Positions 4,796-48,009 of a DNA stretch of 64,000 nt are shown one piece after another (position 1 is the first letter of the stretch; every line of letters begins with the position of its first letter). The position numbers and the translations under genes are program-made. This DNA is from Macrostomum lignano (taxonomy: Eukaryota), in NCBI GenBank assembly GCA_002269645.1, contig NIVC01001211.1, forward strand, positions 62,001-126,000, read 5' to 3'. The notes beneath the pieces were generated by a model. That model was not told the origin of the DNA. It ran no database searches and saw only the letters and a program-made list of their open reading frames with translations.

Positions 4796-4848
4796 GATAC
4801 TGCAACGCCGGTCCCAAAAGCAGGTGCACCAACCAGCCTCCCACCGAC

Positions 4849-5454
4849 ATGTCAGCGGAGCCTCCTCGCCAGCCGGCCTACCCAGCGCTGTTCTACCCCG
4901 CTGCCGCCGCGGCCGCCTGGGACTTCCGGAGCGGAGGCACTGGCGGCGGCGCCGGCGGCTCGGCGACCTCAGCTGCGGCCGCTGCGGCTGCGGCGGCTCT
5001 GCTGGACTCGCGGCAGCCTCATCAGCACCACGGACACCCGCAGCACCCGGCGCTGCACCCGCAGCACCATCACCCGCGGCCGGCAGCGATCAGCCGCAAC
5101 CCGTTCGACCCGCAGAGCCGCATCCCGCTGCCGCACCCGTTCGGCGAGTTCCACTTCGGCTGCGAGAGCTCCTTCATCCGCCGCCGCAACGAGCGCGAGC
5201 GCGAGCGGGTCCGCTTCGTGAACGAGGGCTACGAGCGGCTGAAGGAGACGCTGCCCTTCGAGAACAAGGACAAGCGCATCAGCAAGGTCGAGATCCTCAA
5301 GACGGCCATCCGCTACATCCAGCACATGGAGAGCCTCCTGCGGGCGGCCGACCAGCAGCAGCAGGCGGAGCCGCGCAGCTCCGGCCTGAAGCGGCGCCCC
5401 CTCGGCCCCGAGCTGCAGGCCGAGCCGCAAGAGAAGCGGCTGCGGCCGGCTTGA
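4849..5454 (+). CDS. Achaete-scute-family bHLH transcription factor (ASCL3/4/5, ASC-b-like), 201 aa, single exon
   Basis: The bHLH SSFIRRRNERERERVRFVNEGYERLKETLPFENKDKRISKVEILKTAIRYIQHMESLL matches the ASC RNERER..V..VN.GY..L...LP......SKVE.L..AI.YI pattern. The xFIRRRNERER lead-in resembles the ASCL3/4/5 class. AATAAA at ~5748. Confidence 0.9.
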   Translation: MSAEPPRQPAYPALFYPAAAAAAWDFRSGGTGGGAGGSATSAAAAAAAAALLDSRQPHQHHGHPQHPALHPQHHHPRPAAISRNPFDPQSRIPLPHPFGEFHFGCESSFIRRRNERERERVRFVNEGYERLKETLPFENKDKRISKVEILKTAIRYIQHMESLLRAADQQQQAEPRSSGLKRRPLGPELQAEPQEKRLRPA

Positions 5455-9230: not shown

Positions 9231-9400
9231 GGCTGCCAGGTGACAGAGGAAGAGAATAAAACAGACAATAAAACTCAAAAGGTCTCCACCAGCTAATGTG
9301 AGGCAGGATATGCAATGTACACAGGATGGGGCAGAGTTGGCACGGCAGGGGCAGTGATGAGTTTCTCAGAGAGTTCGCAGCAGCCCCGGCAGGCGAGCCC

Positions 9401-12400
9401 TCAGTCCATCTTGATGTTGGTGTAGATGTAGCGCACGAACTGCATGGAGGCAGCGAAGGACACGGTGCCGAGCGTGAGGAAGAACACGTAGCACAGCAGG
9501 ATGGAGTAGCCGAAGAACTCCACCGCCTGCAGCAGGCCGCTCATGTTGCTGCGAAAGTAGAAGAAGAAGGCCGAGTACAGCAGCACGAAGAAGGCGCTGG
9601 AGCCGCCGCTGAACACGGAGCGCCACCACCAGCGGTAGTCCTCGGCGGACAGCTGGAAGTAGGTCAGCGCCACCGCCACGCAGGCCGTCACGGACAGCAG
9701 GATGATGTACACCACGGCCAGGATGCCGTACAGGGTGTAGTGCTGCCGGCCCCACACTGTGGCGTAGATGTAGTACAGCTCCACCTGCGGGCGGGGCTAG
9801 TAATGATGCTGAGTGCGCCTTGGCTGCCTCCTGCATCTGGCCAATCATGGCATTCAGCTGCGATACGGCATTGGTTTCACACATCCCCCACTGGGCTGGC
9901 AATTTGAGGTCACAGCAGTAAGAATCTGAGGTCACAGCAGTGAGAATCTGAGGTCACAGCAGTGAGAATCTGAGGTCACAGCAGTGAGAATCTGAGGTCA
10001 CAGCAGTGAGAATCTGAGGTCACAGCAGTGAGAATCTGAGGTCACAGCAGTGAGAATCTGAGGTCACAGCAGTGAGAATCTGAGGTCACAGCAGTGAGAA
10101 TCTGAGGTCACAGCAGTGAGAATCTGAGGTCACAGCAGTGAGAATCTGAGTTCACAGCAGTGAGAATCTGAGGTCACAGCAGTGAGAATCTGAGGTCGGT
10201 CACAGCAGTGAGAATCTGAGGTCACAGCAGTGAGAATCTGAGGTCACAGCAGTGAGAATCTGAGGTCACAGCAGTGAGAATCTGAGGTCACAGCAGTGAG
10301 AATCTGAGGTCACAGAAGTGAGAATCTGAGGTCACAGCAGTGAGAATTGAGGTCACAGCAGTAAGAATCTGAGGTCACAGCAGTGAGAATCTGAGGTCAC
10401 AGCAGTGAGAATCTGAGGTCACAGCAGTGAGAATCTGAGGTCACAGCAGTGAGAATCTGAGGTCACAGCAGTGAGAATCTGAGGTCACAGCAGTAAGAAT
10501 CTGAGGTCACAGCAGTGAGAATCTGAGGTCACAGCAGTGAGAATCTGAGGTCACAGCAGTGAGAATCTGAGGTCACAGCAGTGAGAATCTGAGGTCACAG
10601 CAGTGAGAATCTGAGGTCACAGCAGTGAGAATCTGAGGTCACAGCAGTGAGAATCTGAGGTCACAGCAGTGAGAATCTGAGGTCACAGCAGTGAGAATCT
10701 GAGGTCACAGCAGTGAGAATCTGAGTTCACAGCAGTGAGAATCTGAGGTCACAGCAGTGAGAATCTGAGGTCGGTCACAGCAGTGAGAATCTGAGGTCAC
10801 AGCAGTGAGAATCTGAGGTCACAGCAGTGAGAATCTGAGGTCACAGCAGTGAGAATCTGAGGTCACAGCAGTGAGAATTGAGGTCACAGCAGTAAGAATC
10901 TGAGGTCACAGCAGTGAGAATCTGAGGTCACAGCAGTGAGAATCTGAGGTCACAGCAGTGAGAATCTGTCGCAGCCACTCACCGACACGGCGCTGAAGCT
11001 GAGGAAGCCGCCGATGAGGCAGTGCACGGGCCAGGTCTTGTAGCAGGGCACGGCGGGGATCTCCCTGGGGATGTTCTTTGTGCGACAGGGAGCGTCCAGG
11101 CCGGGCGGCGCGTTCTTGCCGGCCATGCCGCCCAGGATGGTGAGCGGGAAGCCGAGGAACAGCCACAGGCACAGCAGCAGCAGCACGGTGGACCAGGGCA
11201 GCGCCTGGGTGGTGCCGTAGGCCCAGGCCACCGAGTTCACCACGGCCCACACCATGAACAGCGGGAAGGCGAACAGGAAGGAGGTCAGCAGCACGTTGCG
11301 GGCCCAGCGCTCGCCGCCCAGCCGGCGGAACATTCGACAGGACACGAAGCCGGCGATGCCAGAGGTGAAGGCGTACAGCACGATGCCGGCGGAGTTGATG
11401 TTGCCGTGGTGGTGCACGTTGAACAGGCCGAGCAGCGCCATGACGAACAGGCCGGTGATGATGGCCAGGAACTGCGCGCCCACCCCGATGGTGGCGGAGA
11501 AGAAGCACTTGTGCTTGGGCGGCCTGAACACATCGTTGTGCACCGTCTTCCAGCCGTTGTCCGAGTCTTCGTCCGCCTCCTCGTCCTCCAGGTTGTACCT
11601 GAGGGTGGCGGCGACCGGTTCGTTCACTGCGTGCTTTGCCAGTGCGGATGCAGCTCAGCTGATGCAGCTGGAGAAACACTAGGGGTCATGACCCCAAGGA
11701 AGCAGAACACCTCCTCCTTACTCAAGTCACCAGTATGCTCACGCTGCTAAGGCAGACCAAAATTTTACAGCAGTCTGGCTGGTGCACTCTGGCATGCCCG
11801 GGTAGAATTCCCACTCCCCTTGTCTTCCTTCAAACGTGTGAGCAGCGGAGGGTCCAAGTGGGTCAGTGGTGCCAGCGGACCCAAGGATCAGGTCCTGGAT
11901 TCGCCACTTTTTAAGTTTTAACATTCGAGATACAGGCGCTTGGTGGTATGAAGCGGAACCAACTGTGTTTTGTACTATGCAACTGTGTTTTCTTCTATTT
12001 AACTTGATGTATTCTTGTTTAAAGTCAAAAACGTAATTGGCGGGCAATGATCGGCAGGGAAAAGTCGGCAGGGAAAGGTCGGCAGGGAAGGTCGGCAGGG
12101 AAAAGTCGGCAGGGAAGGGTCGGCAGGGAAAGGTCGGCAGGGAAAGGTCGGCAGGGAAAGGTCGGCAGGGAAAGGTCGGCAGGGAAAAGTCGGCAGGGAA
12201 AGGTCGGCAGGGAAAAGTCGGCAGGGAAGGTCGGCAGGGAAGGGTCGGCAGGGAAGGGTCGGCAGGGAAAGGTCGGCAGGGAAAGGTCGGCAGGGAAAGG
12301 TCGGCAGGGAAGGGTCGGCAGGGAAGGGTCGGCAGGGAAGGGTCGGCAGGGAAAGGTCGGCAGGGAAAGGTCGGCAGGGAAGGGTCGGCAGGGAATGTTC

Positions 12401-13475
12401 GGCAGGGAAAGGTCGGCAGGGAAAGGTCGGCAGGGGAGGGTCGGCAGGGAAAGGTCGGCAGGGAAGGGTCGGCAGGGAAGGGTCGGCAGGGAAGGGTCGG
12501 CAGGGAAAGGTCGGCAGGGAAAGGTCGGCAGGGAAGGGTCGGCAGGGAAAGGTCGGCAGGGAAGGGTCGGCAGGGAAAGGTCGGCAGGGAAGGGTCGGCA
12601 GGGAATGTTCGGCAGGGAAAGGTCGGCAGGGAAAGGTCGGCAGGGGAGGGTCGGCAGGGAAAGGTCGGCAGGGCAAAGAAGCGCTGCAAGCCGCACCTGG
12701 CGAAGTCTTTCTTGAGAATGCGGAACAGGATCACGGTGACAAAGCCGATGAGGAGCAGCACGAGGATCAGCGAGTTGATCACCGACAGCCAGTGGATCTC
12801 CAGGGTCTTGGGGAAGAAGGATGTGTCCTTGATGAGCTTGGCCCGGTCCTCGAACTTGACGTCAGACTTGACCCAGGCCACCGAGTAGGTGAAGGCGACC
12901 TGACTGCCCGGCTGCAGCTTGGCGAGGTCCACGGGCGCCTTCTCCTGCGTGACCACCTTGACGAAGACGATGCGCTGGCCGCTGAAGTAGAACCTGAACG
13001 AGAAGTGCGTCCACAGGAACACCTTGTGCGAGTGCGGCACGAAGCCCGTCTCCTCCAGGTGGCCAACGAAGCCGCGCACAGGAATGTCGTCCACCACGAA
13101 CTCGAAGTAGTACAGGTCCTCCACGGCCGTGCGCAGCTGCTCCAGGTCCGCCGCAGACAGCTGCTTGCTGCACAGCACCTTGTCGGCGGCGTCCTGGCCG
13201 AACCGGATGTCGAACATGGACTGCGCCATGCGGTCTCCGTCCAGCAGCTCGCCGAGGCTCATTGACTTGTGCACAATGGTGGCCGGCCGGCACACGGGCA
13301 GCTGGTAGTAGTGGTAGGTCTCGTGCGGGTTGAAGTACGGGCCGACCTTGTTCACGTACACCTGCACCGGGCCGCCCTGCTTGTACAGCTCGGCGCCGCC
13401 GGCCGCGCGGAGCAGCGCCGCGGCGCAGCACAGCAGTAGGAGGCTGTGGAACGGCTTCATCGCGACCTGGGTCAT
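9401..13475 (-). CDS. TM9SF1: Transmembrane 9 superfamily member 1 (nonaspanin), 3 exons, 592 aa
   Basis: Exons 13475-12697, 11598-10983 and 9784-9401 have GT-AG boundaries and total 1779 nt (593 codons). The protein has a signal peptide, [35 protein letters not shown] and [13 protein letters not shown], and ends [11 protein letters not shown]...YRWWWRS...YIYTNIKMD*, which is typical of TM9SF1. Confidence 0.95.
9905..10970. repeat. Intronic tandem array, 22-bp unit (gaggtcacagcagtgagaatct)n
   Basis: Fills TM9SF1 intron 2. Confidence 0.95.
12050..12675. repeat. Intronic tandem array, 14-bp unit (ggtcggcagggaa[a/g])n
   Basis: Lies in TM9SF1 intron 1. Confidence 0.95.
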
Positions 13476-30121: not shown

Positions 30122-30688
30122 CTCTACACACAAAAAATGCAGATCATAATCATATGACATAACCCAAATATTATAATGATGTGAACGTATTCAATAACTA
30201 GTACTCAAGAGGTTCTATTATGCATATAGTATAATATTTAGTACATTTAGATAGGTAATGGAAACACTTAATTGACTTACCTTGTAAGAATCAAAACCGC
30301 GAATCACATTATCTGGCAAATAGTAGTAACAAAAAATACCCATTTTTAGTTTTTAATGCTTTTTATTTTGATGCGGTGGGAGTCGTTTATTCAGGTAAAA
30401 AATACGATATCGCTCTGATTATTATTAAATCGGAGATACACTACTGTCCTGAGAAATCAAAGAATGCAGAATGCAGAAAGCCATTACACAGTCTAAGAAC
30501 AGAATTTTAGAGTTCATATAAAAAAGGAAAATTCTATTTGCCGCTACCTTTCCGCTTTATCTAACAAGAAGCAATTTTTACATTAAAATTCTAAAAACCT
30601 CATTTTAAAAATTTTAAGAGGTTGCTAAAGTAGAAAAAGTTTTGTTTAAAATTTTCAACCTAATTGTGCTAACTCTGATAAATAATCG

Positions 30689-32380
30689 CACCCGAGTGGC
30701 ATCGATCTTATCGGGAGTAGATGTACCATTTTTTACCGATGTTATCGGGTTGAAAACATGGCGGGAATGTCGGCAACATGTCATCATCCCGATATAATCG
30801 GGGCATAATGCTTTTAAATTGAGCATGTTTTGCGTTTATTTGAATTTCACGTTGCTAAATGTATAGAACTGGCCTAGCGTATTCATTTGCATAAAATATA
30901 TATTATGCTTGTGCTTCATGTGTTTGAAACTTTACTCGAGGTCAAGGCTCCCCTCAGTGTGGAGAGTTTTTGTATACAGGCTACAGGTTTTTATAACTAT
31001 GACAAATATTAATTAATGCTTTTACTTGGGTGCTTTTACAAATTCATCACCATTTACTCTAACCAATAAAATATTAATATTATTAATGTTACCTAAGAGT
31101 GACAAACTGCAAAACTTCTTCAAGTTAGGCCTACCTAAAAATTGTTTGAAACCTTTAGACCAAAATAGGAAGAATTGATTTTAATTTATTGTCTATATAT
31201 TTGATTATTTCTGCAAAATTCTTAAATTCTTAAATTCTTCTAGACCTTATAGAAGACTTCTTTCCTTAATTTATATTAGGAAAACTTTTGAAATATTAAT
31301 ATGGTCATGGATTAACTTAACTATAGCTAAAAACTTTGAAAAGGAAGACAGAATAGGAGTCTAGACTATAGTCCTAGAAGGGGACAGATAGGGTATATCT
31401 ATATTATATTGTCCTTTTATTGTCTATACTACCAATATATTCCTTATCCTTATGCTAGGCTCCTACTCTCTATATCCCTATATCCTCCTTGCCTTCCTTG
31501 CCTTCCTACTAGCCCCCTAACCTCTCCTAACCTCCTAAGGATTCCCATATCCTTATTGCTCTCCTACTAGGCTTTTATCCTCTATACCTTCTATATATTT
31601 TTCCTTACCCTATTGCTAGGTTCTAATCCACCAAACACTATGCCCTCATTATCCTCTATATCCTCCTTTCCCATCTACTGGGTCTTACCTTCTATAATAT
31701 ATATCCTCTTGACCTCTTATCCTCTTGCTGGCTCCTATCCTCCATATCCTCAATATCCTTCTCTTTTTACTAGGCTCCTACCCTCTATAGTCTATACCCT
31801 CCTTACCCTCCTTCCCCACCTGCTGGCTCCTACCTTCCATATCTTCTTATTCTCTTGCTAGGCTCCTACCCTCCATGCCTTCCATACCCTCTATGTCTCC
31901 TCCTAGGCTCCTTTCCTCTATGCCTTCCATGTCCTCCATGTCTCTACTCTCCTAGGCTCCTACCCTCCATGTCCTTCTTACCCTCCATACCCTCCATGCC
32001 CTCCATACCCTCCATGCCTCATAGGTTCTTACCCTCCATGCCCTCCATACCCTCTATGCCTCCTAGGCTCCTACCCTCCATGCCCTCTATACCCTCCATG
32101 CCTCCTAGTCTCCTACCATCCATGCCCTCCATACCCTCCATGCCCTCTATACCCTCCATACCCTCCTTGTCCTCCTACCCTCTATACCCTCTTATCCTCC
32201 TGCTAGGCTCTTACCCTCCATGCCCTCCATACCCTCATCCTCCTGCTAGGCTCTTACCCTCCATGCCCTCCATACCCTCCATGCCTCCTCCTAGGCTCCT
32301 ACCCTCCATGCCGTTCTTACCCTCCATACCCTCCATGCCTCCTAGGTTCTTACCCTCCATGCCCTCTATACCCTCCATGC
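30689..32380 (+). repeat. Left long TIR (near-identical part); a related CT-rich minisatellite continues to ~32880
   Basis: Reverse complement of ~43770-45466; the ORF track gives identical peptides for 31613+/44542- and for 31855+/44300-. Confidence 0.9.
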
Positions 32381-32895
32381 CCTCCATACCCTCCATGCCC
32401 TTCTTACCCTCCATACCCTCTTACCCCCTCCTAGGCTCCTACCCTCCATGCCCTCCATACCCTCCATGCCTCCTCCTTGGCTCCTACCCTCCATACCCTC
32501 CATGCCTCCTCCTAGGCTCCTACCCTCCATGCCCTCCATACCCTCCATACCCTCTTACCACCCTGCTAGACTCCTACCCTCCATGCCCTCCATACCCTCC
32601 ATGCCTCCTCTTAGGCTCCTACCCTCCATGCCCTCAATACCCTCCATACCCTCCTTGCCTCCTCCTAGAGTCCTAGGCTCCTACCCTCCATGCCCTCCAT
32701 ACCCTCCTTTCCCTCCTTGCCCTCCTTGCCCTCCTACCCTCCTTGCCCTCCTTACTCTCCTGCTAGCCTCCTACCCTCTATGCCTCTATCCTCCTTGCAC
32801 CTGCCTTTCCCCCTACCCTCCATACCCCCCTCCATCTCCCCCGGCCCCAACCCCATATCCTTCATAGCCTCCTTGCCGCAGCTCTTTTATCTTAC

Positions 32896-35800
32896 ATGCT
32901 TCTATCCTATTTGTTCCTGGGTCGTCCGAGCAAGCGACTTAAAGTGTGCATTAATGGGCGCACTGTATATCTGCAGAGCATCAGAAAGCAATCTATAATT
33001 AGCGCCCTACCTCTTGCGCAGTCGCAACTCTCTGTTCCTAATGCTACACGTGATGGTCCTTCCAGTCAGTCTGAATTTAGTCAGGATCCGACTTCTGAAA
33101 TCCGTGAAGACTGCGACTGGGAGGCTCTGAATCCGAATTCAGAGCCAGACGTATTGGCGGCATTTATGCACTTCTTTAAGGATGGACGTGGACGGTGTGC
33201 TGAATGTTCGCAGGATGCCAACGTATACTGCCCACAGTGTGCGGATTATTTCTGCTCTGTTTGTGTTGACACTCGTCATCTTGGCCTTGTGCACACCATT
33301 CTTAAAGTAAGCCTTAATTTATGTTAAACGCTCTGACCACTTATAGGAACGAGGGATGCAGAATGCGGAAAAATATACTTCTTATTTAGTGGCACATATC
33401 AGTTTTATCGTCAAGCTAATTACAATTCATCTACGGGCTATGCATAAAAGTAAGCAGGGTCTTATCCTTTAATGTCTATTTAAGGATGGAACTCCTCTAA
33501 ATCAAGCTGTGACCCTAGCGTGCGGCTGCTCCGATGAAGCGGTGTTTGGAGACGTTCAGATTGTCGACGCCTATGGAGGTGAGATTGTAAAATCTATTTA
33601 TACTTTTGTTATTACATTTTTGTTAGACCGAGCTCAAATCAATGAACCAGTCACCTCTTAATTAATACAATTTAGGGTACCATACAGCCTGCTTGAAGTC
33701 TTGCACACTGCAGCACTATCGATCATTCCTTGTCAGCCGTGGTTTCTTTCCTGCTGCACCTACTAGTGCTACATTCATATCTTGTGAACTGCTACTTAAC
33801 TTGGATTCTATTATGATAAATGGGATCACATCTTTGGACAAAGCTTGTGCGACTATACAAAATCGCCGATTAGCTTTTGGGCAGCATCCGCAGGTATGCT
33901 TGTGCAGTACTTATTGGTAATTGAAAGTAGTGAGTTTTATTTATGTTCTCTGCAGTATAATCCGTTATTGTATATACTTAAGGTGTTAGGTTCCCATTAT
34001 TTGAGATATCATCAGCGTCAATCCGAATTTTTCAGCGAGATCTCTATTACGATTTGAAACGCTATAACACTATTGGCTACTTTCGACAGTTCATGTCGTC
34101 CATTGTAAAGTTTCCAACAAGCTGCGCAATGTGTACGACGGGCGATTTGGTGAGAGCTTATTCAGATTTTGCAATGTGTGCTATGCTACTTAACTATTTT
34201 TAGTATCCTTGAGGTTAATTTTTAATATTTCAACTATCTCAAACTATGTGCATAATTGTTTTTCCTTTTCAGGGCCCAATCCTGCACGGAGATGCCCTGA
34301 TGGGCTGGAAACATCGAGCCTCAGTTGCACCTGGCTTGGCCTCTGTGCCTATTGGTGATCTTCCTTTTCCGTTTGCGCATGTCGATGTCGCATCTGAAAA
34401 TATTGCGCCTGCGAGCGGTGCGTGTCCAAACTGGACAGCAGGCGAAACGTCTCGCATTACTACGAGTTCTAGGAAGCTGGACGTAACAGGCTTTTTCATC
34501 GTAGCCTGTCGCCACGGTTTCATTTGGGCCTGCTCTGATGTGCGCACTCCCGGAGAGCAGTAAGACTTTTTATTCGACTCATGCATTTATTTTTCATTTT
34601 TGCTCCGTTGTCCTTATTTAAAAATGAAACTTGGCAACACATCTTTAGGCTTGTCTACCCTGTCAAGCTCCTTAAAGCCGCTGTGCAGCGCATCGGTGTA
34701 CCAGAAGAAGCTGTGACATTTGTCTATGATGTCGCATGCAAACTCGGCAACAAAGTCACTTCGAAGTTGGCCGTACCAGTTTTTCATGCATACGGTCACG
34801 AGTCTAAGTGTCGCGTGAGTCTTTACCATTTTACTCATAGCATTTTGTGGGCATTATTTTGTGTTCATAGCTTTAATCAGCCCCAAATAATTTAAAAGAG
34901 CTTTTCATGTTAGTCGGTGTTGTCATTTTGCGGGCTTCTCAGTTTAGTTCTGAATAAATTTTTAATAAATTTTTTCCTCTCAGCTCAACAACTCCATCCG
35001 CGTCGTGTCTGGCACTGGTATCACAGACGGAGAAATCTGCGAGCGCATATTCTCCTTTCTGCGTCCTTTCGGGCGAATCTTGAAAGAAATGCGCATTGAC
35101 CGTCGTACACGGCTTGTCTCACACATTATTAACATGTATCATCTGCGTCTTAACCCGGGTGCGCATCAAGCTTTCAGTCAAAATAAGAATAGCTGATTTT
35201 TCATAAGGTTTTAAGTTTCTAGCTAACATTCACATTTTATTACTGTAGATGCATGGATAAAGTCACGACAGAAGCTTCTGGAGAAGAAGGATCAGCTCGT
35301 CATTCAACATGTTAATGAAATAAATCGACTTCAGCCCCGGCACGGTAAGTGATTTTTCTTTCAATATCCTCCCATCAGCATACTCGAAAATTCAGTTTTT
35401 TCTACCTACGTTTTTTGCATTACAGAGCTTAGTCTTCAACAATTAATTTCACTGGGAGAAAAATGGCTTTGCGAAGATGCAATCGCTTCCGCTCTGCGGT
35501 CAGGAGATTGGCTCCAAAGCATGCGTCGAATGGTGGTCGAAGAACGGAAAGTTCTCAAAGAGCTTCATCGAACAATTGGTGTGTAAGCTCCTATTGGAAC
35601 ATAAACATCTTCCTTTGAAAGGAAAGAAATTAAATTTGAATACAAAGAGATAGTATAATAGTCCTTTATTGAAGATAAAGGATAGTATTCTTGCTATCCT
35701 ATTTGAAATCCCCTCAATGACCCACATGACCCCCCTCCCAGCTGGCGTGACCCTCCAGACCAAAATCTTGCTACGCCACTGACAGGTATGAGATATGAAG

Positions 35801-36253
35801 TAGCAAAGTAAGAAAACAGTTAATAAAATCACTTGCTCGATTGCCCGATAACGTATCAGCTATCTTCACAAGTAGGCCACATTATTTCCATTGCATTTAC
35901 CAGGCATCCATCAGTATCGACTGCTGTTGCGCAAGGCCAAGAAGCTGGCACTGGAGATGAATCAACTTCGGTCTCTCAACGGAAACCAGTATTCAATAGC
36001 AACGCTTCGAGACACGACTTCGGAAGCATACTCACGATTGGACCGCCACGTCAGCCGCCGGTTTCCAATTCCTGTCCAGCTTTTGGTCATTGAGGTTTAC
36101 ATCCTTTCCATTCGTTCTACCGAGGAGCGCCGTCGAGTCAATGCTGAGCAGAGCAGCCTGATGACCAAAACCGAAAGCGTTTGTGACTTCCCAGAATACT
36201 TCAGTGAAAGCTCCTCTAGCTTCTCTGGTGTATCCGATTCCGAAGACGAGTAG
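32896..36253 (+). CDS. KDZ transposase with N-terminal Zn-binding (B-box-like and CxC) clusters, ~690 aa, 10 exons
   Basis: Exons 32896-33306, 33485-33578, 33676-33893, ~34006-34149, 34273-34559, 34649-34814, 34984-35158, 35249-35344, 35426-35578 and 35904-36253 are phase-compatible with no stops; the start codon and the 34006 acceptor are uncertain. Motifs: CAEC..CPQC..FC..C...H, CGC...VDAYG.YH..C...RGFFPAAP, C..C...LHGDA, GFFIVACRHG, YDVAC, PVFHAYGH..KC, GTGITDGEICER, RSTEERRRVNAE. Confidence 0.85.
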
Positions 36254-37260
36254 GATTTTTCCGATTGTAGCCATGAACTGTGGCAAATGAGAAACTCAAT
36301 GCAATGACTTTATGAAGTCTAAATTGTTCTAAATTATTTGTATGCTCTTGAAGTAAAGTACATGTAATACTAGCGTATGCTTTGTTGTAAATGCAAAGCA
36401 AATGCCGTTTTCTGTACCTTAATGCGTGTGTGATTGTACTGCCACTCATGCATATTTAGTTAAAGTTAGCCTTAGTCCTAGTACTTGTATTTCCTGTAAC
36501 TTCTGTATTTGAAGTTACATTACTTATATTAGCTTCTGCTTCGCAAGCAAGTCATACAAATGTATACAAATTTGCGAGTGTGTATAATGTATTTGCTTAA
36601 AATTTGATATAGAAGTGTGTTTTGTCAAATACAAATTGTACATGTGCGTCACTCTAAATTGATTGGTTTAAGGTTGTACATTAAGCGAGAAAGTTAAATC
36701 CTGCTTATTTTTTGCTTGCTTCTTTACTTCGCAATGCTGTTTCAGGTGAGTAGCTAAATTTTGGGGCTTGAATCGAAACAATCACTCACAGAATTATGGA
36801 ATCAATCCTGGAATCGATGGAATGTACACCAGCTGCCAGAGACAGCAAGAAGCGATGCAAGAGATAAGAGTTGAGCCGATTCAATTGCCTGGGTGGCTCG
36901 TCCCGTAACTACGAATGAGTTAAGTTGCCTGCAGTCCGGTGCAAGGAAAGTGGAAAGAATTGAAGAAATGATTGGCGGAGAGGTGGCTGGGGTTGTGCAG
37001 ATTGGGCCGGGTCTTTTGGAGGATTAGTGTGGATTTCCGTGAGGGGTATAAGGGCAAGTTTGCAAAGCTGCCGCTTCGGCGCTATGCGCGCCATTCTGCC
37101 GCCGCTTGCGTCGGCTGATAGGGCAATAGTTGAAGTGTCATTTGGCGCTTGCGGCGCGCTGATAGCTGCATCCGTTATGTTGGACCAGCATGCCAAGTCA
37201 AACGTAATAATCGCCTCACTCCATTCAAAGCGATCTATTTTGTGTTTCAGACTCGGACTT

Positions 37261-38076
37261 TAATGGACATGGCTTCCACATTATCCCAGAGTGCGGGACG
37301 TCAAATCCCGCCAAGATCTGTCCGGATTAAGGGGCATTCAGAAATCACTTTTGCACCTGGTGGTGCTCCAAATATGCAAGTCTATATAGACAGGCTTAGT
37401 TTAGTCCAACTTTGTCAGGCTGCCATTGAAGAACCGCTTGGCCTAGACAGGTGCGACTTGCGCACTCACTGGTGCACTATATAGTCCAGATTGTCCCGGT
37501 TTTAATCTTCAGGTACAGCTTAGTCTTGCATCCTGTAATTTCCAGCTGTCAATCTACATGTATATGTACATCTACACCTCTTACCCGCCGAAGACGCGTC
37601 CACGAAGTCTACCCACAGGGGGTCCCGTGCACACCGGCAACCAGCCCACCCTACACCCCCCCGATCGGTCTTGCGAAATGAGTGGTACCGTTGTGGACGT
37701 CAGTGCCTTCGCTAAGGTAACTGAGCGCGGTCTGCATGGCTAGCAATAGCAGTGGTACATCCTGGCCAAGGACTTCATCACCGACTCCTCTGGTCGTGCA
37801 AGCAATAGGCTCCGGTTGAGCCTTGTCTGCCTTCGACTGCAACGACTCCGACTGCGACTCACCTCCGGTCTCGCGCCCGCAACCGGCGCTTCCGGCCTCG
37901 CCCGCCAGTTTTCTGCGCACTTGGCATCGCCCTCCAAACGGCCTCTTGCGCTAGCCTGCAACCTCGCGCACCATGTATTTCTGACTGTGCTGTCGCACCC
38001 GCCAATGCCTGGCCAATCTACACACCTGCCAGTGATACCCCGGGCATCGAGGCTGCGGTTGGCCAACGCGCTTTAA
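37261..38076 (+). other. Possible unidentified spliced ORF inside the KDZ element
   Basis: GC-richer, codon-like segments (MDMASTLSQSAGRQIPPRSVRIKGH...PLGLDR followed by GT; acceptor-like cttcag at ~37512). No recognisable domain. Confidence 0.3.
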
Positions 38077-40476
38077 AATCTAGATTTAAGATTGAGGTTT
38101 GCAGATGAGGTTTGATTTCTAGATCTAGAAATCCTAATTTACTGTATCCACATTCTTCCTACTGGGGATCACAAAATCGTAGAGAGATGGGATTTTTGAT
38201 GACTCTACACTCGTTGCCCGTGAAGTGACTGAAAATGACAATGATTTTCTATCAATGCGATATCCAACAATGCGTCCCGTATTATGCATCTCAAGCAACA
38301 TTTTATCCTCTGGCATTATTGGAAGGTTGACTGGAATGCATGATTTAACTTTTCAATAGGATAGGCTTGCATTATTCGTTGGGACGCTGGGTCTAATGGG
38401 ATGCGTTCTTTATGTTTTAAAAGGAGTTTTCGGACTGGAAGTGACCTGCCCCCTCCTTTTCCTTCGCTTTTGCCCTCTTGTACCACTTTTGCCTTCTGCC
38501 TATTACACTTAGGAAAGTTTTAATTACCCTTTGAACATTCTTTCCCTGAGATCAAGGACAACCCAAGTCTGAGACATCTACCCAGTCTACCGTGAGTATC
38601 TAAGTCCATCGTAACTGTTTGTCAGTTACTCCTTAGCACTACAAGGTTCACATACCAGTCCTAAAATATCTTGGGACTACAAGGGTTTTAGTTAACATCT
38701 TACACCGCATTATCTTACACCGCTTGTTAGACCATCACGTGTTTGCATTATTAAATAAATTGTAAGCTTGACACCATCAAGAGATTGACACCATCAGGAA
38801 CGAAGGTCGTACCCTTTTCTAGATTCATTTGTGCCCATAGGATTAGGGGCACTGGTCAATAGGTGCCCAGTCGAGATACGGCACAGACCATAAAATGTAT
38901 ATTTCAGTGATTTCACCCGTCCAAATCACGCTTAAGCTCACATCCTTCACATTCTTACTCTTACAACCCGGTTGGTGAACTGGATGACTGGAGTCTCTTT
39001 GTGACGGAGCAATATCCGCAGAATTGAACTCCTTACAATAATAGAATCATTATAAAAAGCCAACCCCACCCATCAATAGCAACTTCATGCCCTGTAACAA
39101 TAACTTTGCATTTCAACAAAATTATGTTACGTGTATTATAGCAACTTCTGAGGAAATATCGTTTGATCAAGCCTTATATCGAACTACTCGTACTTTAAAT
39201 TTTCAAATAGAGCTGCACCGGTTAATTTTTCAGAATCTTTTTCAACGGCATAATTAATTTTCTTGCAGCTCAAATTAAATACATTTATCAGGGGCACAAA
39301 TTGACCGGAAATTTACATGATTTTACTTTGCACTTTGCCTGTCCCTAGCCCGATGCGCAATTGTGAGTTAAATCAGGCTCAATATCATTCTTGCTGAAAC
39401 ATCAACAGACAGGCTCACAGTATTGGACCGAACTGAAAAAGCACTATCCGGCCTTTTTCGCCGTACAAACAAGAATTTTTATGCTCTAAAGTACGAGTAG
39501 ATTACTATTACCAGTCCCATCGGGCAAATGACACGCGCAGTTCCTTCAGTGCCCAACTGTGAGGACAGGCGCGAACTCGGCTCTTCGTTGACTGACTGCA
39601 GGCGGCGCGGCCTTCACCCGTGACCATGCAGGTCTCAAGGCATGCCCCGAGATGCTGCACCAAGGACCTTGACAACTTGCTTTTCTATTCTGTTAAGACT
39701 GCAGTTCATTTGGAGAAGTGGACACTTAACACCCAGTGCATCTGTGCACACGTGGACATGCAGACTATGCATGTTTGATATGGTATGGTACATGTATAGC
39801 TCAACAAACGTTGATTTTTAACTTGTCTTATAAAGTGTCTTCTAAAAGAGAATTTAACCTCTTTTTCGTTTCTCCCAATTTTTTTATTTCCATATACGAA
39901 TATCCAAGCTGCCGGATCGAGTGAAAAGAAGTGGAAAACAAAAATATCTGAAATAAAGTGAACACATTCTCAAAAGATGGAACAACCGGCCATAAGGAGT
40001 AAAATTGCATATCTTGACCTAGAAATGAACTAACAGATTTTATTTAATAACAATTTGGTGCAGGAAATTGGGGCGCAAGTATAAAGTGCAACACGCACTA
40101 TAACTACATGCGTCTTGAAAAAATAGCTGCCAAAATGATTGCAAAATTCCAGGCACAAAAATAACTGCAGGGATAATTTGCTGTCTTTTGCTGTTTTGCA
40201 CAAGCGTCTTCAAAATCGACAATCTGAAATTAACAACTGACAACCAACGTTCTATCGGGTGTGGGGTGTCCAAGAAGGGCCACACTTTGTGCGCAAACTC
40301 TGGTCTTAAAAATGATTACTTTCTGCAATTTTTTCAGAATTCATTAAACTGTCTTCTCCAATACGGGATAACATTTGAAACCTGCTCAATGTGATGTTCC
40401 GATCCTGACACCTGGCTTTTAAGATTTATTTAACTGGAACTAAATAAATCAAACAAAATAAGCATCAGAAAACCAC

Positions 40477-42624
40477 TTCGACGTCGTCGGTGCTGAACCC
40501 AGCCTTTGTACTGGACGTCGAAACAGTGATGGTCGGAATGCCGACAGATGGCGTCACAGTGGCCGGTTTCGCTCGCAAAGCGGCTCGATTTGCCCGCACA
40601 GCAGTCGGCGGATTCGGCACGATCGGCGGATTCGGCACGGTACGCGGATTCAGCACGGTCGGCGGATTCGGCACGGTCGGCGGATTCGGCACGGTCGGCG
40701 GATTCGGCACGGTCGGCGGATTCGGCACGGTACGCGGATTCAGCACGGTCGGCGGATTCGGCACGATCGGCGGATTCGGCACGGTCGGCGGATTCAGCAC
40801 GGTCGGCGGATTCGGCACGGTCGGCGGATTCGGCACGGTCGGCGGATTCGGCACGGTCGGCGGATTCGGCACGGTCGGCGGATTCAGCACGGTCGGCGGA
40901 TTCGGCACAGAAAAATCGAGTGTCATGGATTCACTCTCGTCCTGAGCGTGTTCTGCTGTGCCGCCAGAAGCCTGCACATTGTGATCATTGTCTTCCTGAC
41001 CATTTTCATGCCCTGGAAGGAACACTAGGTCGAGGCGTGTGTCGTATGCTCGACGCAAAGCTAGTCCTTTTAGCTTTGATGGGTTGCTTAGATGAGGTCG
41101 AAATACCCCCTGAAGTTGGCGATAATTTACTTTCGCACCCATTCCGGCCTTCACTAAAACGGGGCAGGGAGTAAGGAGAAAGTGTTTTAATTGAATTGTA
41201 CTTTGCATAAAAGTTTAACATAATTTTTTGCATAAAACTTTAGCTATTAAGAACATTACGAACTTTGCCATAATTTCAGGATTCGTAATCATGCTGTTTG
41301 ATCCAGGTACTAAAAATTCATTTTCATTAATTTTCAAAAAATTAAACTAACTGTATGCGGCTCTTGCTTCAGCTCGGACTTCTTTTCGCATTTCGTCAAC
41401 AGTAGGCTTCCTGGTAGACACGCCATTGCCAGAAGGCTCTTGGGATGAGAGCAGTTCAAACTGCTGCAAGGAAAGGCGTAGAAAATAATTCAGGGTAATT
41501 TTACCAAAATTGTACTCTGTAATTCAATACAAAAAACCAAGATTTTATAATAAATATTATGTAATTTAAGGCATCTTACCTGGAGAAGGCCATTCGCGTC
41601 GTTAGAGTGCAGTAATGGCAGCACTTCGGGTGATGCGCATGATTTTGTGTTCCTGCCATTACGTCGCTTCACAATAAGCAGCACATGGTGGTCCTTGAAG
41701 AGAGACCGAGCCTAAAAATAAAGTTAACATGCTACACGTAAGAAGTCATCGTCCCTCTAGAAATCAGCGGAAGCCTTCAAAGAAGGAGAAGCCAGGGGAA
41801 ACACATGGGCGTAGCCAGGATTTCTGATTGGGGGGGACGCACGGAAGAGGCGACAATGGGGCGCTAAAATAGCGCCAACTGGGCGCTAAAATAGCGCCAA
41901 ATAGGCGCTAAAGGGCGTCAAATCGGCGCCAAAGGGCACTAAATGGGTTCAAAATGAGCACTTAAGCTGCTCCCCAGGGGCGCGGCCCCCCTTAGCTGCC
42001 TTGCCCACCCTCCCGGGCCCCCCTCAGCGGCCCCACCCCCCAGGCGATTGGGGGCCGCGGCCCCCGCCCCCTGGCTACGCCACTGGGGGAACATGGGGTG
42101 GGAAATTTGACACGCGCCCGCTCCCACTACGACAAGCAACAAATGATCAATGATTTTCAGTGCAGTGTATGCAGTTTGATTCATTTTTACTGGCTAAAAA
42201 GAAGAAATTTATATGACACTGCAATTTATAACAAACCATTCGATCCAGATCTGCGACAGACGGACCGCTCCTCTGTTCGTTGGCAATACTTGCGTAATTA
42301 GCTTTTTCCTCATCAGTAAGACCATTGTAGTAAGCTTTTAGCCGATTTATGTGTTCCGCTGAGAAATTGCCTAAAGTAACGAAAGGAATGATATTAATAA
42401 GTTTTACTACGTAGACGTAGATTACGTATCTAATGTTCACTCTCTCACACACGCACGATGTACATTTAATTTGCGTGACAAATGCAATGCAACATTTTCC
42501 TGACACAGGCACGCTTATCCTATAGGAAAGCCAAAAAGAGAGAAGGAACCTTACGTGTGCCATGTATCTTATACACCCCAGACCAGGCGCTGACCTTACG
42601 CTGCTGGAACACCTTCTTCGTCAT
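40477..42624 (-). CDS. KDZ cargo gene (5' part): HMG-box-like domain, GTF2I-repeat-like segment and (VPNPPT)n tract; probably continues 3' toward ~40.1 kb or beyond
   Basis: Exons 42624-42555, 42370-42237, 41711-41580, 41463-41352 and 41153-40477 are GT-AG and phase-compatible. RKVSAWSGVYKIHGTRNFSAEHINRLKAYYNGLTDEEKANYASIANEQR fits an HMG box. The GTF2I-like call is by eye only. Confidence 0.65.
40600..40910. repeat. Coding 18-bp tandem repeat (ggcggattcggcacggtc)n encoding (VPNPPT)n
   Basis: In frame within ORF 40465-41208 on the minus strand. Confidence 0.9.
41804..42085. mobile_element. hAT-like MITE in an intron of the KDZ cargo gene
   Basis: TIR catgggcgtagccagg / cctggctacgccactg; TSD gggaaaca / ggggaaca (1 mismatch); internal short repeats ggcgctaaaatagcgcc. 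Confidence 0.75.
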
Positions 42625-43769
42625 CTGAAATTGTTTGCAAATATGCTACCAATTTCTAAATAGAGCCGATGGAGTACCATCACATAGAGGGTACAAGGTG
42701 GGGAAATATAGCATTTTGCAGTCAAGTTTGAACAACAGGCAGTCAAGTTAGACGCTAGTGAAGCCGACCGAGTTAAAAAAGCAAAAACTACCTATGGTCA
42801 CAGAAAAAAATCACATTAACTGGCAATCAAGTTAGACAGAAAGCACTCAATCCAGACACCAATTGCTTGTTGAAACCTAATACACGGATGACTTTGAACA
42901 TTCAACAACCTAGCAATTTCAGACACAAGATCACCACGCGGACAAGCCAAGCTTGTACGATTATAGCAAGTATAGCAAGAAGGGTACAGAGGGTATGGTA
43001 GGTAGAAGCCTACCAGCATGGAAGGACGAAATAGAGAGTAGGATCCTAGCAGGCAAGTAAAAGGGTATTGAAGGTATGGAGGGTACAGCGAGTAGGAGCC
43101 TAGCAGGCGGGGAAAGAGGGTACAAAGAGTGGGAGCCACGGGCTTCGAGCCAGCAGGAGGGCAAGGAGGGAATGGGAGATAGAAACCTAGCAGGCGGGGA
43201 AGGGGTGTAAGGAGGGTAAGGATGGCACGTAGTGTAGGAGCCTAGTAGGAGGGCAAGGAGGGTATGGAGGGTTGGAGGTAGGAGGACAAGGAGGGTATGG
43301 AGGGTTGGAGGTAGAGGACAAGGAGGGTATGGAGGGTTGGAGGTAGGAGGACAAGGAGGATATGGAGGGTAGGAGGACAAGGAGGGTATGGAGGGCATGG
43401 AGGATAGGAGCCTAGGAGGAGGGTAAGAGGGTATGGAGGGCATGGAGGGTAGGAGTCTAGCAAGTCTAGCAGGGAGGTAAGAGAATATGGAGGGTAGGAG
43501 GGCAAATAGGGTACGGAGGGTAGGAGGGCTAAGAGGGTATGGAGGGTAGGAGGGCAAGGAGGGTATGGAGGGTATGGAGGGCATGGAGGGTAGGAGCCTA
43601 GGAGGAGGCATGGAGGGTATGGAGGGTAGGAGCCTAGGAGGGGGTAAGAGAGTATGGAGGGTAGGAGGACTAGGAGGGTATGGAGGGTAGGAGGGCAAGG
43701 AGGGTATGGAGGGCATGGAGGGTAGGAGCCTAGGAGGAGGCATGGAGGGTATGGAGGGCATGGAGGGTA

Positions 43770-45466
43770 AGAGCCTAGCAGGAAGATAAGAGGGCATGGA
43801 GGGTAAGAACCTAGGAGGCATGGAGGGTATGGAGGGTAAAACGGCATGGAGGGTAGGAGCCTAGGAGGAGGCATGGAGGGTATGGAGGGCATGGAGGGTA
43901 AGAGCCTAGCAGGAGGATGAGGGTATGGAGGGCATGGAGGGTAAGAGCCTAGCAGGAGGATAAGAGGGTATAGAGGGTAGGAGGACAAGGAGGGTATGGA
44001 GGGTATAGAGGGCATGGAGGGTATGGAGGGCATGGATGGTAGGAGACTAGGAGGCATGGAGGGTATAGAGGGCATGGAGGGTAGGAGCCTAGGAGGCATA
44101 GAGGGTATGGAGGGCATGGAGGGTAAGAACCTATGAGGCATGGAGGGTATGGAGGGCATGGAGGGTATGGAGGGTAAGAAGGACATGGAGGGTAGGAGCC
44201 TAGGAGAGTAGAGACATGGAGGACATGGAAGGCATAGAGGAAAGGAGCCTAGGAGGAGACATAGAGGGTATGGAAGGCATGGAGGGTAGGAGCCTAGCAA
44301 GAGAATAAGAAGATATGGAAGGTAGGAGCCAGCAGGTGGGGAAGGAGGGTAAGGAGGGTATAGACTATAGAGGGTAGGAGCCTAGTAAAAAGAGAAGGAT
44401 ATTGAGGATATGGAGGATAGGAGCCAGCAAGAGGATAAGAGGTCAAGAGGATATATATTATAGAAGGTAAGACCCAGTAGATGGGAAAGGAGGATATAGA
44501 GGATAATGAGGGCATAGTGTTTGGTGGATTAGAACCTAGCAATAGGGTAAGGAAAAATATATAGAAGGTATAGAGGATAAAAGCCTAGTAGGAGAGCAAT
44601 AAGGATATGGGAATCCTTAGGAGGTTAGGAGAGGTTAGGGGGCTAGTAGGAAGGCAAGGAAGGCAAGGAGGATATAGGGATATAGAGAGTAGGAGCCTAG
44701 CATAAGGATAAGGAATATATTGGTAGTATAGACAATAAAAGGACAATATAATATAGATATACCCTATCTGTCCCCTTCTAGGACTATAGTCTAGACTCCT
44801 ATTCTGTCTTCCTTTTCAAAGTTTTTAGCTATAGTTAAGTTAATCCATGACCATATTAATATTTCAAAAGTTTTCCTAATATAAATTAAGGAAAGAAGTC
44901 TTCTATAAGGTCTAGAAGAATTTAAGAATTTAAGAATTTTGCAGAAATAATCAAATATATAGACAATAAATTAAAATCAATTCTTCCTATTTTGGTCTAA
45001 AGGTTTCAAACAATTTTTAGGTAGGCCTAACTTGAAGAAGTTTTGCAGTTTGTCACTCTTAGGTAACATTAATAATATTAATATTTTATTGGTTAGAGTA
45101 AATGGTGATGAATTTGTAAAAGCACCCAAGTAAAAGCATTAATTAATATTTGTCATAGTTATAAAAACCTGTAGCCTGTATACAAAAACTCTCCACACTG
45201 AGGGGAGCCTTGACCTCGAGTAAAGTTTCAAACACATGAAGCACAAGCATAATATATATTTTATGCAAATGAATACGCTAGGCCAGTTCTATACATTTAG
45301 CAACGTGAAATTCAAATAAACGCAAAACATGCTCAATTTAAAAGCATTATGCCCCGATTATATCGGGATGATGACATGTTGCCGACATTCCCGCCATGTT
45401 TTCAACCCGATAACATCGGTAAAAAATGGTACATCTACTCCCGATAAGATCGATGCCACTCGGGTG
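43770..45466 (-). repeat. Right long TIR (near-identical part); the minisatellite extends inward to ~43150
   Basis: Mirror of 30689-~32380. Confidence 0.9.
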
Positions 45467-48009
45467 AATAATCGAAGGAAAGTTTCCTTTCTTCCTTATA
45501 GGTTGGATTTTTGTAGCAGTTGGAGATAAAGGCCAAATCCGATTGACTACTGCTCTTTTTCAAAAGCATTTGTTGCCAGTTCTTGAATCATATTTACAGT
45601 TTTTGTCGGTTTTTCACAGACTTCTGAAGTGTTGTCGGGATAAAGCCGAAAAGGTGTTTATGAAATTTGGCCTGCATTTTTGTTTTATAAATATTAATTT
45701 ATATTAATTGCTCCTGCCTGCTTTCTTCTCTGTGCTTATAGAATTACAACCTAATTGCAAGTATATTTGTTAAATCGGGTTAATATTATATTTCTAATGA
45801 CGCAATGGCTTTAAAGTCATTCGGCGTGACAAGTATATAAGTGTCGACAGTAGACTCGACAGTACTGTAGACTCACAAATCTTCTCTTCTTTACTACTTG
45901 CAAAACGGACTGAACGCACGAAATTTGAGCTTGACCTGAATGTCTACATCATAGATATATGTTTTTAGCTATTTTGGGATGGGATCTCAAAGTTCGCCAA
46001 TAAGTTCGTCACCAAGTTATTGGCTTGACTTGCATACAATAACAGATACATACAGATACAGTTCAGGACGAACATCTTTAGCTTCTTTCCTGTGGCTGTA
46101 ACACCAACGGCGCACCGCTGTAACTTTTTGGTAAGTGCTTTCGACTTTGAGTATATTTTTAAAGAAGTATTTTGTTTTTGTACTTAAAAAATTATCCATT
46201 TAGCTAATATAGTCATGGATAAGCAATTTCTGTTTTATTTCATTTTAGCCAGAGAGGCGAGAGGGTCCTTAAAAACTTATAAATTAAGGATCAATTAAGC
46301 AAGTCTTAAATTTTGTTAAGATTTAGATTGTTCAATAATGCAGAATATATTTTAAATATTTTTATATTGAATTACATTGATTGTAATTGTAAATAGCTTT
46401 ATGTTTTCAATTTTCCTTAAATTGACTATAAAAGATGTAAAAGTAAAAGAAAATAAATCTGGTGTTTTGTAATATACAAATTTTAGTAGCATAGGCAGGA
46501 GACCATGGGGTGCCTGTCCCACCTGTGATATTTGATATTTGCATACTTTGTGTTAGCCAGAGCTGACATTAACATAGTTATATTTGATCCTGGGAAAATA
46601 TTCAATTTAGAATTTTGATTATCCATTCTAAGTAAGTTTTACTATGCTATTTGTAGTAGCTTAACTTAGGCTTTGTGTTTAATATATAGGTACAAGGATA
46701 AACAAATTATTCATACATAAAAATTTGCAACGATGTTTTAAAGTATAGAAGACAATTTAAGGTGTTGAAGTGTGAAGAAGTGTGTTTTACCCAAAAATTA
46801 TTATGAGCATTGAAAAGTTGAGAGTTATATTTCAATTTATGTATAATGCAAGGCATTCTGTGATATATGTATGTTATCTATGTCCATAATACCTAATTAT
46901 CTTTCAATTTTATCAAGTTTTCAATTGTTAAATTTTTCCCACTTATTTTGTTTAGCTAACCTATGTATGTAGCTAGGTGTATATTCTTTATTTTATGAAT
47001 TATTTTCATGATTTGGTTTTTCTTTTACATGTCTAGCAGATCTAGACATTATCATTGGAGCATTGGAGCTAAGTAAATATTTGGAATATCTACCAAAAAT
47101 GAATAGTGGCATTGTTGATTTAGACAAAATGGAATGCCACATGGCATTGAGTTGTGGTATTGCATAATAGAGGATTTCCAGGTATAGTTTGAAACTGCAA
47201 AGATGTTTCATTGGAAGCAGCAACAAAGAATGTCATAGCTGATTGACTCAGAGTATGGAAATGCAGTTTAGGGGAGGGGGGCTAAATCAATACGATTTGG
47301 GCAGAGTTCGGTAGCTATAATATATGACTCACTTCAAGCCACAACCCTGCAACTTATGATGCAACTTGTGCCGCGACATCAGCTATGAAAAATGAAACCT
47401 ATGCCCTCGCTAGGGTGTTTGTGGTTTCCCCCTCTTATCTCAACTTTAGCCTATGCACAGTGGCGCAGGTTGCGTCACTTGTGGCTTGAAGCGACTGAGA
47501 GATAAGAAGAAGTTGCGACTTTTGACTGGTGCTATACATTCAAGAAAATTGTTAGGCACATTGGTTGTATCATGTGCTTTCACACTAATACAGATGAACT
47601 GGTTAGCTTCTTTCTTATATGTTCAACAGCATTAAAAAGTCGCCACCTTTGAGCAGTAGATTCTAGCTCATAAGCTCAGTATTGACTCAGTAGTGATGCT
47701 CAGTAGTGACGCAACTTGCGCCAGAGTTGGGCTGGTTGAGGGGGATTGGGAATGGTGGAGGGCAAATGGATTGATTAAAGCTTCCATCCGGTTTTCATTT
47801 TTTAAAGCATCAAAATGGTTGGCCAGGTGATGGACCCTGGTCGAAAGACACTGCTCACTGGGGGCAAAGGGTTGGCGACTTCTAGAATCTCTGCATACAT
47901 TCTTAAATCTGAAGTCATACTCAAACAAAAAATTGTTACTAGTTAGGAAAGCGGTAAATAAAAATTGCAGTAAATTCGTGAGAAATTAGGATTTTAAGCT
48001 TTGAAGATT

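Follow-up and report, generated by a model that had tools for sequence, protein, structure and literature searches.

A second, spliced gene with a predicted GTF2I-like domain in a KDZ transposon of the flatworm Macrostomum lignano

The 64,000-nucleotide stretch of the Macrostomum lignano genome considered here (contig NIVC01001211.1, positions 62,001 to 126,000 of the forward strand; referred to as the window, whose own positions are used below) holds a DNA transposon of the KDZ type, which spans 14.8 kb (30689-45466) and carries two convergent genes, i.e., a transposase gene on the plus strand and a second gene, referred to as the cargo gene, on the minus strand. The cargo gene was identified to be real and expressed, being a spliced second gene of the transposon. 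Its product is predicted to comprise an HMG-like (high-mobility group) box, a weakly MADS-like middle domain, one GTF2I-like domain and a disordered tandem-repeat tail. With a probability of roughly 60%, the cargo protein is a DNA-binding helper, which likely dimerises, binds the repeat arrays at the ends of the element and promotes transposition, a reading that draws on structure models.

Structure and expression of the cargo gene

A preliminary description of this DNA had proposed a convergent accessory gene of five phase-compatible exons carried by a transposon, and in both respects the proposal was borne out. The coding exons locate to 42624-42555, 42370-42237, 41711-41580, 41463-41352 and 41153-40465 of the minus strand and, joined by their coordinates, yield one open frame of 378 amino acids, which contains the peptides quoted at that time and runs from the ATG at 42624 to the stop codon at 40467-40465. 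All four introns are of the GT-AG type, and each of them is skipped by contigs from all four public runs used (one per study, from four studies, out of 24 listed runs); the records of these runs carry no RNA label, their RNA nature being shown by the spliced joints. Upstream, three contigs extend exon 1 as 5' untranslated region (UTR) to ~43283 (~293 letters past 42990), and therefore transcription seems to begin within the inner part of the repeat array at the right transposon end. Intron 2 houses an insertion resembling a miniature inverted-repeat transposable element (41804-42085), which was recognised by its inverted ends; one of these recurs at 34 further genomic places. In the last transposase intron, a short remnant whose end is similar resides at 35735-35782.

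The Pro/Thr tract described earlier is encoded by an in-frame 18-bp tandem repeat at 40604-40908 (minus strand; 16.9 copies by repeat scan), coding for (VPNPPT)n. What had been missed is that the tract is just one case among numerous repeat tails: most cargo families of the genome possess a C-terminal in-frame tandem repeat of their own, with a unit length that is a multiple of three (measured units of 18, 30 and 48 bp; tails seen at L058/L059, L062/L063, L073, L134, L190 and L192), and these tails are unrelated in sequence between families and variable in length between copies. The last exon comprises 228 codons in the window, 450 in the copy at C42 and 168 in that at C1176, and the tails of the C438 and C1309 cargo genes are short and without repeat.

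The transposon and its transposase

Both genes reside between terminal inverted repeats (TIRs) of ~2.1 kb (94% over 2178 nt, the outermost 1627 nt being 100% complementary), which were delimited by TIR alignment. The left TIR (30689-32831, plus strand) begins with CACCC, the right TIR (43321-45466, minus strand) ends with GGGTG, and both comprise subterminal arrays of CCCTCC-containing repeats, the right one reaching inward to ~42960; CCCTCC occurs 53 and 65 times in the left and right arms as compared to 5 times in the 10.1-kb interior. The element is flanked by an 8-bp target-site duplication, AATAATCG (30681-30688), the identical 8 bp being found at 45467-45474, and hence shows the defined ends and target duplication of KDZ transposons. 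Among five insertions, the duplication is 8 bp long in the window and at C38, and 7 bp at C42, C1176 and C1651, with TIRs of 1.9 kb (C1651) and 3.4 kb (C38) in these related families. Near-identical copies of the window's element were found at C42 and C1176, with flanks differing from those in the window, and a further copy at C4148 has the same flanks as the window copy. Within the C1176 copy (C1176:187272-205107) the cargo gene is broken by two insertions, one of ~16 kb in exon 2 and one of ~1.7 kb where exon 1 ends.

The transposase gene consists of ten plus-strand exons (32920-36253), supported by RNA joints, which form an open frame of 679 codons encoding a B-box, a cysteine cluster and the KDZ core. 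Pfam matches to KDZ (PF18758) were obtained for three exons (E 7e-7, 2e-5 and 9e-8), two of which exceed the cut-off (29.6 and 32.5 bits versus 26.6), and zf-B_box was matched with E 2e-5; Cys-rich exons are present, and two of them, when scanned separately, matched no CxC family. The transposase mRNA is trans-spliced, as a spliced leader was found at its 5' end (a 23-letter loose end at 32918, two of four runs), the sequence of which matches the published spliced leader (PMC8629364). A leader RNA gene locates inside the window (51543-51586), its exon ending with ATG followed by a GT donor, and the 679 codons of the transposase would follow this ATG in frame. The trans-splice acceptor (32917-32920) reads CAG in the copies at C42 and C1176, but CTG in the window copy and at C4148, wherefore the window copy is likely unable to use it.

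A second transposase joint (34815-35248), seen in all four runs, skips a 175-nt exon coding for the KDZ core's last catalytic-type motif; this skipping would shift the frame and lead to a truncated, possibly regulatory transposase. Genome-wide, PF18758 gave 92 KDZ matches of several lineages, some of which sit in long open frames with many near-identical copies (e.g., C191, C2504 and C103); at the C2504 and C103 loci, no cargo gene was found within 10 kb downstream.

Predicted domains of the cargo protein

The folds were derived from a model of P0001, a relative of the window's cargo protein; the model is based on an 18-row alignment and is confident for the first and third domains, and an earlier model from three sequences (pLDDT, i.e., predicted local distance difference test, of 43) was not used. 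The HMG-like region (P0001 residues 1-63) is encoded by exon 1 (predicted helix 1) and exon 2 (predicted helices 2-3). All 12 PDB profile hits obtained for it are HMG-box proteins (E 0.13-1.6), two multi-HMG proteins were matched at E 1e-7 and 1e-3 in a scan of 1.84 billion sequences, and the modelled fold aligns with many HMG boxes at Z 3.3-5.3 (about 4-5); on these relatives, the L-shaped three-helix pattern is weak but consistent. Pfam HMG_box stayed below its cut-off (13-15 bits in P0002 and P0003 versus 22-25) and did not match the window exons. The HMG-like N-terminus proposed earlier is therewith supported by both profiles and fold.

A middle domain (P0001 63-123) had gone unnoticed. 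It is predicted to consist of a helix (end of exon 2), two strands forming a hairpin and a further helix (exon 3), reaching into exon 4, and appears weakly MADS-like in that it aligns with SRF, MCM1, MEF2 and SEP3 at Z 2.3-3.1. One gene model from the family of the window carries 'MADS-box' as its automatic label, and a profile search with exon 3 returned no MADS sequence.

The third domain (P0001 ~128-198; pLDDT 83-96 over residues 131-200) probably adopts the I-repeat fold of the GTF2I domains, which came out on top in four comparisons of two P0001 models. In the window's protein its helix 1 would be encoded by exon 4, following a linker, and its second half by exon 5 (41153 to ~41014), upstream of a further linker and the repeat tail. 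In Foldseek, the first four places go to GTF2I domains (probability 0.92-0.97, E 0.2-0.5), and in a structure scan only two of 48,161 chains reached Z>=5, both being GTF2I (next row 4.7): 2eje with Z 7.7 (root-mean-square deviation, rmsd, 4.8; 74 residues aligned) and 2d99 with Z 6.8 (rmsd 2.7; 66 aligned). Upon re-alignment of 692 chains, ranks 1-8 were again GTF2I (Z 6.3-7.3, identity 12-23%). The independent Atlas model gave a template modelling (TM) score of 0.70 to a chordate GTF2I cluster (71 of 73 residues), and the same value to an unnamed Basidiomycota cluster, the other eight rows ranging from 0.48 to 0.55; Basidiomycota clusters were also matched by Atlas features with scores of 0.75-0.85, and these matches serve as leads only.

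The DNA-binding domain of NRF1 aligns with the third domain as well (P0001 124-192 with NRF1 192-273; Z 3.8, rmsd 2.8, 64 aligned), and one exon of a distant cargo version touches PF11001 at E 0.05. Kinship to NRF1 was not significant at the sequence level, as 23, 208, 222 and 421 of 1000 shuffles scored as high as the cargo profiles against two host NRF1-like frames, and a genome scan with PF10491 matched host genes and no cargo locus. No enzyme domain is predicted in the cargo protein.

The cargo family and its pairing with KDZ transposases

Nine KDZ families were found to possess a convergent cargo gene on the same side and in the same orientation. Searching from the cargo side identified the proteins P0001-P0003 and loci of six families (31-64% identity), four of which (the window's family, C1651/C105, C38/C211 and C277) are convergent to a KDZ gene. 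From the transposase side, four of 23 downstream 10-kb stretches hold a distant cargo version (C1309, C438, C1659 and C262), whereby no row with E < 0.1 was obtained from reversed decoys, and a search with one exon of these far families added C227, where the cargo gene locates 8.9 kb from a convergent KDZ gene. The C262 cargo gene (L134:1200-2390) seems interrupted upstream of exon 5 by what resembles, by eye, a mariner-type element.

According to hhalign, the third domains of near and far cargo families are homologous (88%, E 2.8e-6 over 70 columns), a score reached by none of 500 shuffles for each of the four near domains, and both are split by an intron at a matching place; the far families keep a W-x-x-W-P motif. 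The transposases are 87-96% identical within the three near ones scored and 32-43% identical to five far ones, a comparison for which 13 of 19 loci gave a segment and C277 gave none. The cargo split mirrors that of the transposases, and the pairing is therefore older than these lineages. As to the alignments, A4 keeps two partly misplaced fragments, and A9 is without the exon-1/exon-2 fragments, the far exon-3/exon-4 fragments and two of the far exon-5 fragments. In all ten pairs formed by the five closest cargo families, the proportion of nonsynonymous differences (pN 0.17-0.43) is below that of synonymous ones (pS 0.55-0.93), with synonymous sites being near saturation, which indicates purifying selection.

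Word-based searches for relatives returned one, three and three proteins, all from the same species, and the scan of 1.84 billion sequences gave six matches, i.e., four gene models of the same species and the two generic HMG proteins, so that at E<1e-3 no relative outside the species was found except for the latter. In the genome searches, no single-copy host parent of the cargo gene was found.

Proposed function and alternative explanations

The En/Spm protein TnpA helps its transposase to pair the element ends, and for the cargo protein a helper role of this kind was suggested. The middle domain would pair two chains, as in SRF and NRF1, and the two GTF2I-like domains of such a dimer would read paired motifs within the subterminal arrays. 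The HMG box would bend the DNA, and binding and bending together could bring the element ends and the transposase together; the protein might also steer the inward-facing promoters at both ends. That a dimer binds the arrays was proposed because NRF1 shares the layout and the TIRs carry dense CCCTCC arrays: in NRF1, a MADS-like dimerisation domain is linked to a separate domain which reads two half-sites (PMC10810270, in the part of that report drawn upon here).

Several points weigh against this reading and the folds it draws on. The folds were obtained with P0001, which is 48% identical over 187 positions, instead of the window's own protein, and at the Z-scores given the MADS likeness of the middle domain is weak. 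For the GTF2I match, no Foldseek E-value falls below 0.2, the Atlas marks its hit as under its bar, and a match with Z < 8 can reflect a common arrangement. The cargo proteins gave no Pfam match to PF02946 (with far-family domains scanned as halves), PF02946 found no candidate in the whole genome and the PDB profiles were blank for GTF2I; moreover, the window's family has lost six residues including the W-P motif of the far families. Concerning the pairing, 19 of the 23 other KDZ downstream 10-kb stretches are without cargo gene, which is hence not obligatory, no transposase was seen within the 10-20 kb examined at the C1450 and C2757 groups, and the far-exon search gave four further groups with no KDZ gene in the stretches examined. 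Finally, minisatellites abound throughout this genome, which means that the end arrays do not have to serve for binding. The GTF2I-like module of the preliminary description thus stands as the top match in all fold comparisons, but not as a match of any sequence profile used.

It is possible, if less likely than not, that the GTF2I likeness reflects analogy or a very remote superfamily kinship, the domain then being a small helical DNA-binding fold which NRF1 and fungal proteins possess as well and which is silent on the ancestry of TFII-I. The low identity to GTF2I domains and the blank profiles would fit with this, as would the Basidiomycota cluster at equal TM score, the NRF1 alignment and the PF11001 hit on one far exon. 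On the other side, the GTF2I rows locate 2 Z units above all unrelated rows, the match spans the whole domain and two independent models (P0001 and Atlas) agree on it.

As to the role of the protein, the main rival to a transposition helper is mainly a transcription or anti-silencing factor, which would bind the end arrays, thereby activate the two inward promoters or maintain them open, and stand outside the cutting complex. This was regarded as distinctly less probable than the helper role, even though each of the three predicted folds is one of transcription factors, transcription of both genes apparently begins in or close to the end arrays and low-complexity tails are common in transcription activators, since the tails hold no conserved motif and are unrelated between families; an enzyme domain is likewise absent from the predictions.

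A captured host gene travelling as a passenger without role for the element is improbable. It would be in line with the 19 of 23 KDZ stretches without cargo gene within 10 kb, with cargo copies lacking a nearby transposase and with the interrupted C1176 copy of the window's own family; however, the constant position and orientation of the gene in nine families, which span a deep split of the transposases, the signature of purifying selection, the lack of a single-copy host parent in the genome and, at E<1e-3, of relatives outside the species other than generic HMG proteins argue against it.

The 3' end of the cargo gene

Downstream of its stop codon, the cargo transcript continues into a 3' UTR (39986-40464, minus strand), as RNA contigs from all four runs cross 40600-39986 unspliced. 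Three of these end at 39985-39989, and the fourth continues into the 3' end of the transposase gene. Hexamers resembling poly(A) signals locate to 40430 and 40048, three contigs ending ~60 bases behind one of them. RNA cover between both genes is patchy in three of the four runs, and a third gene at 36254-40464 was considered but is not claimed: when this part was compared, in six frames and as DNA, to 12 stretches from other families, a single chance row (E 0.41) emerged.

Two fragments in this region had earlier been likened to the start and the Q..N..DCG motif of a possible Ulp1-type (C48) protease, with a conceivable role in deSUMOylation. The fragments, 40419-40306 (37 codons) and 40229-40107 (41 codons), reside in different frames, are each closed by stops and locate past the cargo stop within the unspliced 3' UTR. 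They gave no Pfam match at E<=5, and nothing corresponding to them turned up in 12 further stretches that hold cargo copies; no His-Trp or Asp-Cys-Gly occurs in any minus-strand frame of the stretch, nor a His-Asp-Cys triad in one frame. PF02902 (Peptidase_C48) matched the genome 32 times, but neither on this contig nor in the element, whereas fish Zisupton transposases carry an Ulp1 domain. That a further splice nonetheless leads into a SUMO protease can practically be dismissed: a relaxed form of the motif, Q..N..C[GS], which was fitted post hoc, was found in only 45 of 2000 shuffles, and the tandem repeat in exon 5 (~40634-40878) is bridged by no RNA contig, contigs being known to drop rare isoforms, but the in-frame stop precedes the fragments, exon 5 is without a strong donor pattern and the fragments are neither conserved nor matched by Pfam. 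The proposed deSUMOylation role falls with the protease. A hydrophobic/acidic C-terminus similar to SUMO-interacting motifs was noted for the families of the window, C277 and C438, and not for C1651 or C1450; no claim is built on it.

Surroundings of the transposon

Beyond the transposon, the window holds a ribosomal DNA unit (50900-64000) with 18S (53655-55467), 5.8S (56139-56292) and 28S (56610-60367) genes. The unit is bordered by a repeated block that contains leader RNA genes (matched at 51562 and 62816). A U1 small nuclear RNA gene locates to 62157-62318 and an array of the TTAGGG type to 60986-61144. By eye from the list of open reading frames, two host genes were assigned, namely what we take to be an achaete-scute-like basic helix-loop-helix gene (4792-5454, plus strand) and, presumably, a TM9SF/endomembrane-70-like gene with minisatellite-filled introns (9300-13300, minus strand).

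Relation to known systems

With KDZ elements in general, the transposon shares the KDZ core (PF18758), CA..TG termini, a multi-exon transposase and the presence of extra genes, and an HMG-domain gene was reportedly noted beside fungal KDZ elements by Iyer et al. in 2014. In the part of Kojima 2025 (PMC12730594) drawn upon here, Kyakuja is described as lacking TIRs and having CA..TG ends and duplications of 7 bp, those of Zisupton and Dileera being 8 bp long; in duplication length, the five insertions agree with Kyakuja in three cases and with Zisupton/Dileera in two, whereas the TIRs of 1.9-3.4 kb in the flatworm elements differ from Kyakuja, as does their cargo from the TET/JBP genes described there as extra genes. 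GTF2I is not mentioned in the main text of that work, the supplements of which may annotate such open reading frames in fungal elements. As the window's element mixes traits of Kyakuja and of Zisupton/Dileera, it was filed under KDZ only.

Transposons with a second gene are well known: in MuDR of maize, mudrA and mudrB are convergent and read inward from the TIRs, and TnpA of En/Spm is a DNA-binding partner for subterminal repeats. Harbinger elements encode a Myb/SANT protein partner (PMC12730594, same part). In all three, the second gene serves the transposase, as was proposed for the cargo gene, whereas transposase group and folds are unrelated, so that the likeness is one of design only.

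TFII-I is known as the Williams-syndrome factor of vertebrates. With its family (GTF2I, GTF2IRD1 and GTF2IRD2; PF02946; PDB 2eje, 2d99, 2dzq, 2dn4, 2dn5 and 1q60), the cargo protein would share the I-repeat fold over 65-77 residues, as judged from the models. In TFII-I, a leucine-zipper region precedes the repeats (PMC3493543, in the part considered), as the candidate dimerisation domain precedes the I-repeat here, and the same part describes I-repeats as unique to three vertebrate proteins. The cargo gene differs in that it is transposon-borne and from an invertebrate, with an HMG-like box, 12-23% identity and no Pfam match, and its product holds a single repeat followed by a low-complexity tail and the stop, unlike the several I-repeats per chain of TFII-I. 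NRF1/EWG/P3A2 (PF10491; PDB 8k4l; PMC10810270, in part) resemble the predicted cargo protein in possessing a MADS-like dimerisation domain, a flexible linker and a separate DNA-binding domain, but the score is weak and PF10491 finds no cargo locus.

Within the open literature, i.e., with subscription journals, Repbase and supplements outside the scope, no link of I-repeats to KDZ elements was found among the papers listed, and none appears in the parts considered of PMC9297572, PMC12062965, PMC12428995, PMC6431247 and PMC8700633. Tentatively, and with odds somewhat below even, the TFII-I family might be a domesticated KDZ helper, in which the dimerisation region and the I-repeat were kept, the HMG box was lost and the repeat was multiplied, whereby the NRF1 DNA-binding region and the unnamed basidiomycete proteins would belong to the same transposon-spread superfamily. 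At the least, the modelled TFII-I-like fold is a hint at a possible origin of TFII-I from the helper gene of a transposon. An expressed relative with one repeat, residing in intact flatworm transposons, is a candidate for the ancestor of TFII-I and offers a simple test of what a single I-repeat binds. It is likewise shown that a KDZ element of an animal can comprise two genes, the second one coding for a conserved, probable helper; this is of relevance for end recognition in this poorly studied group.

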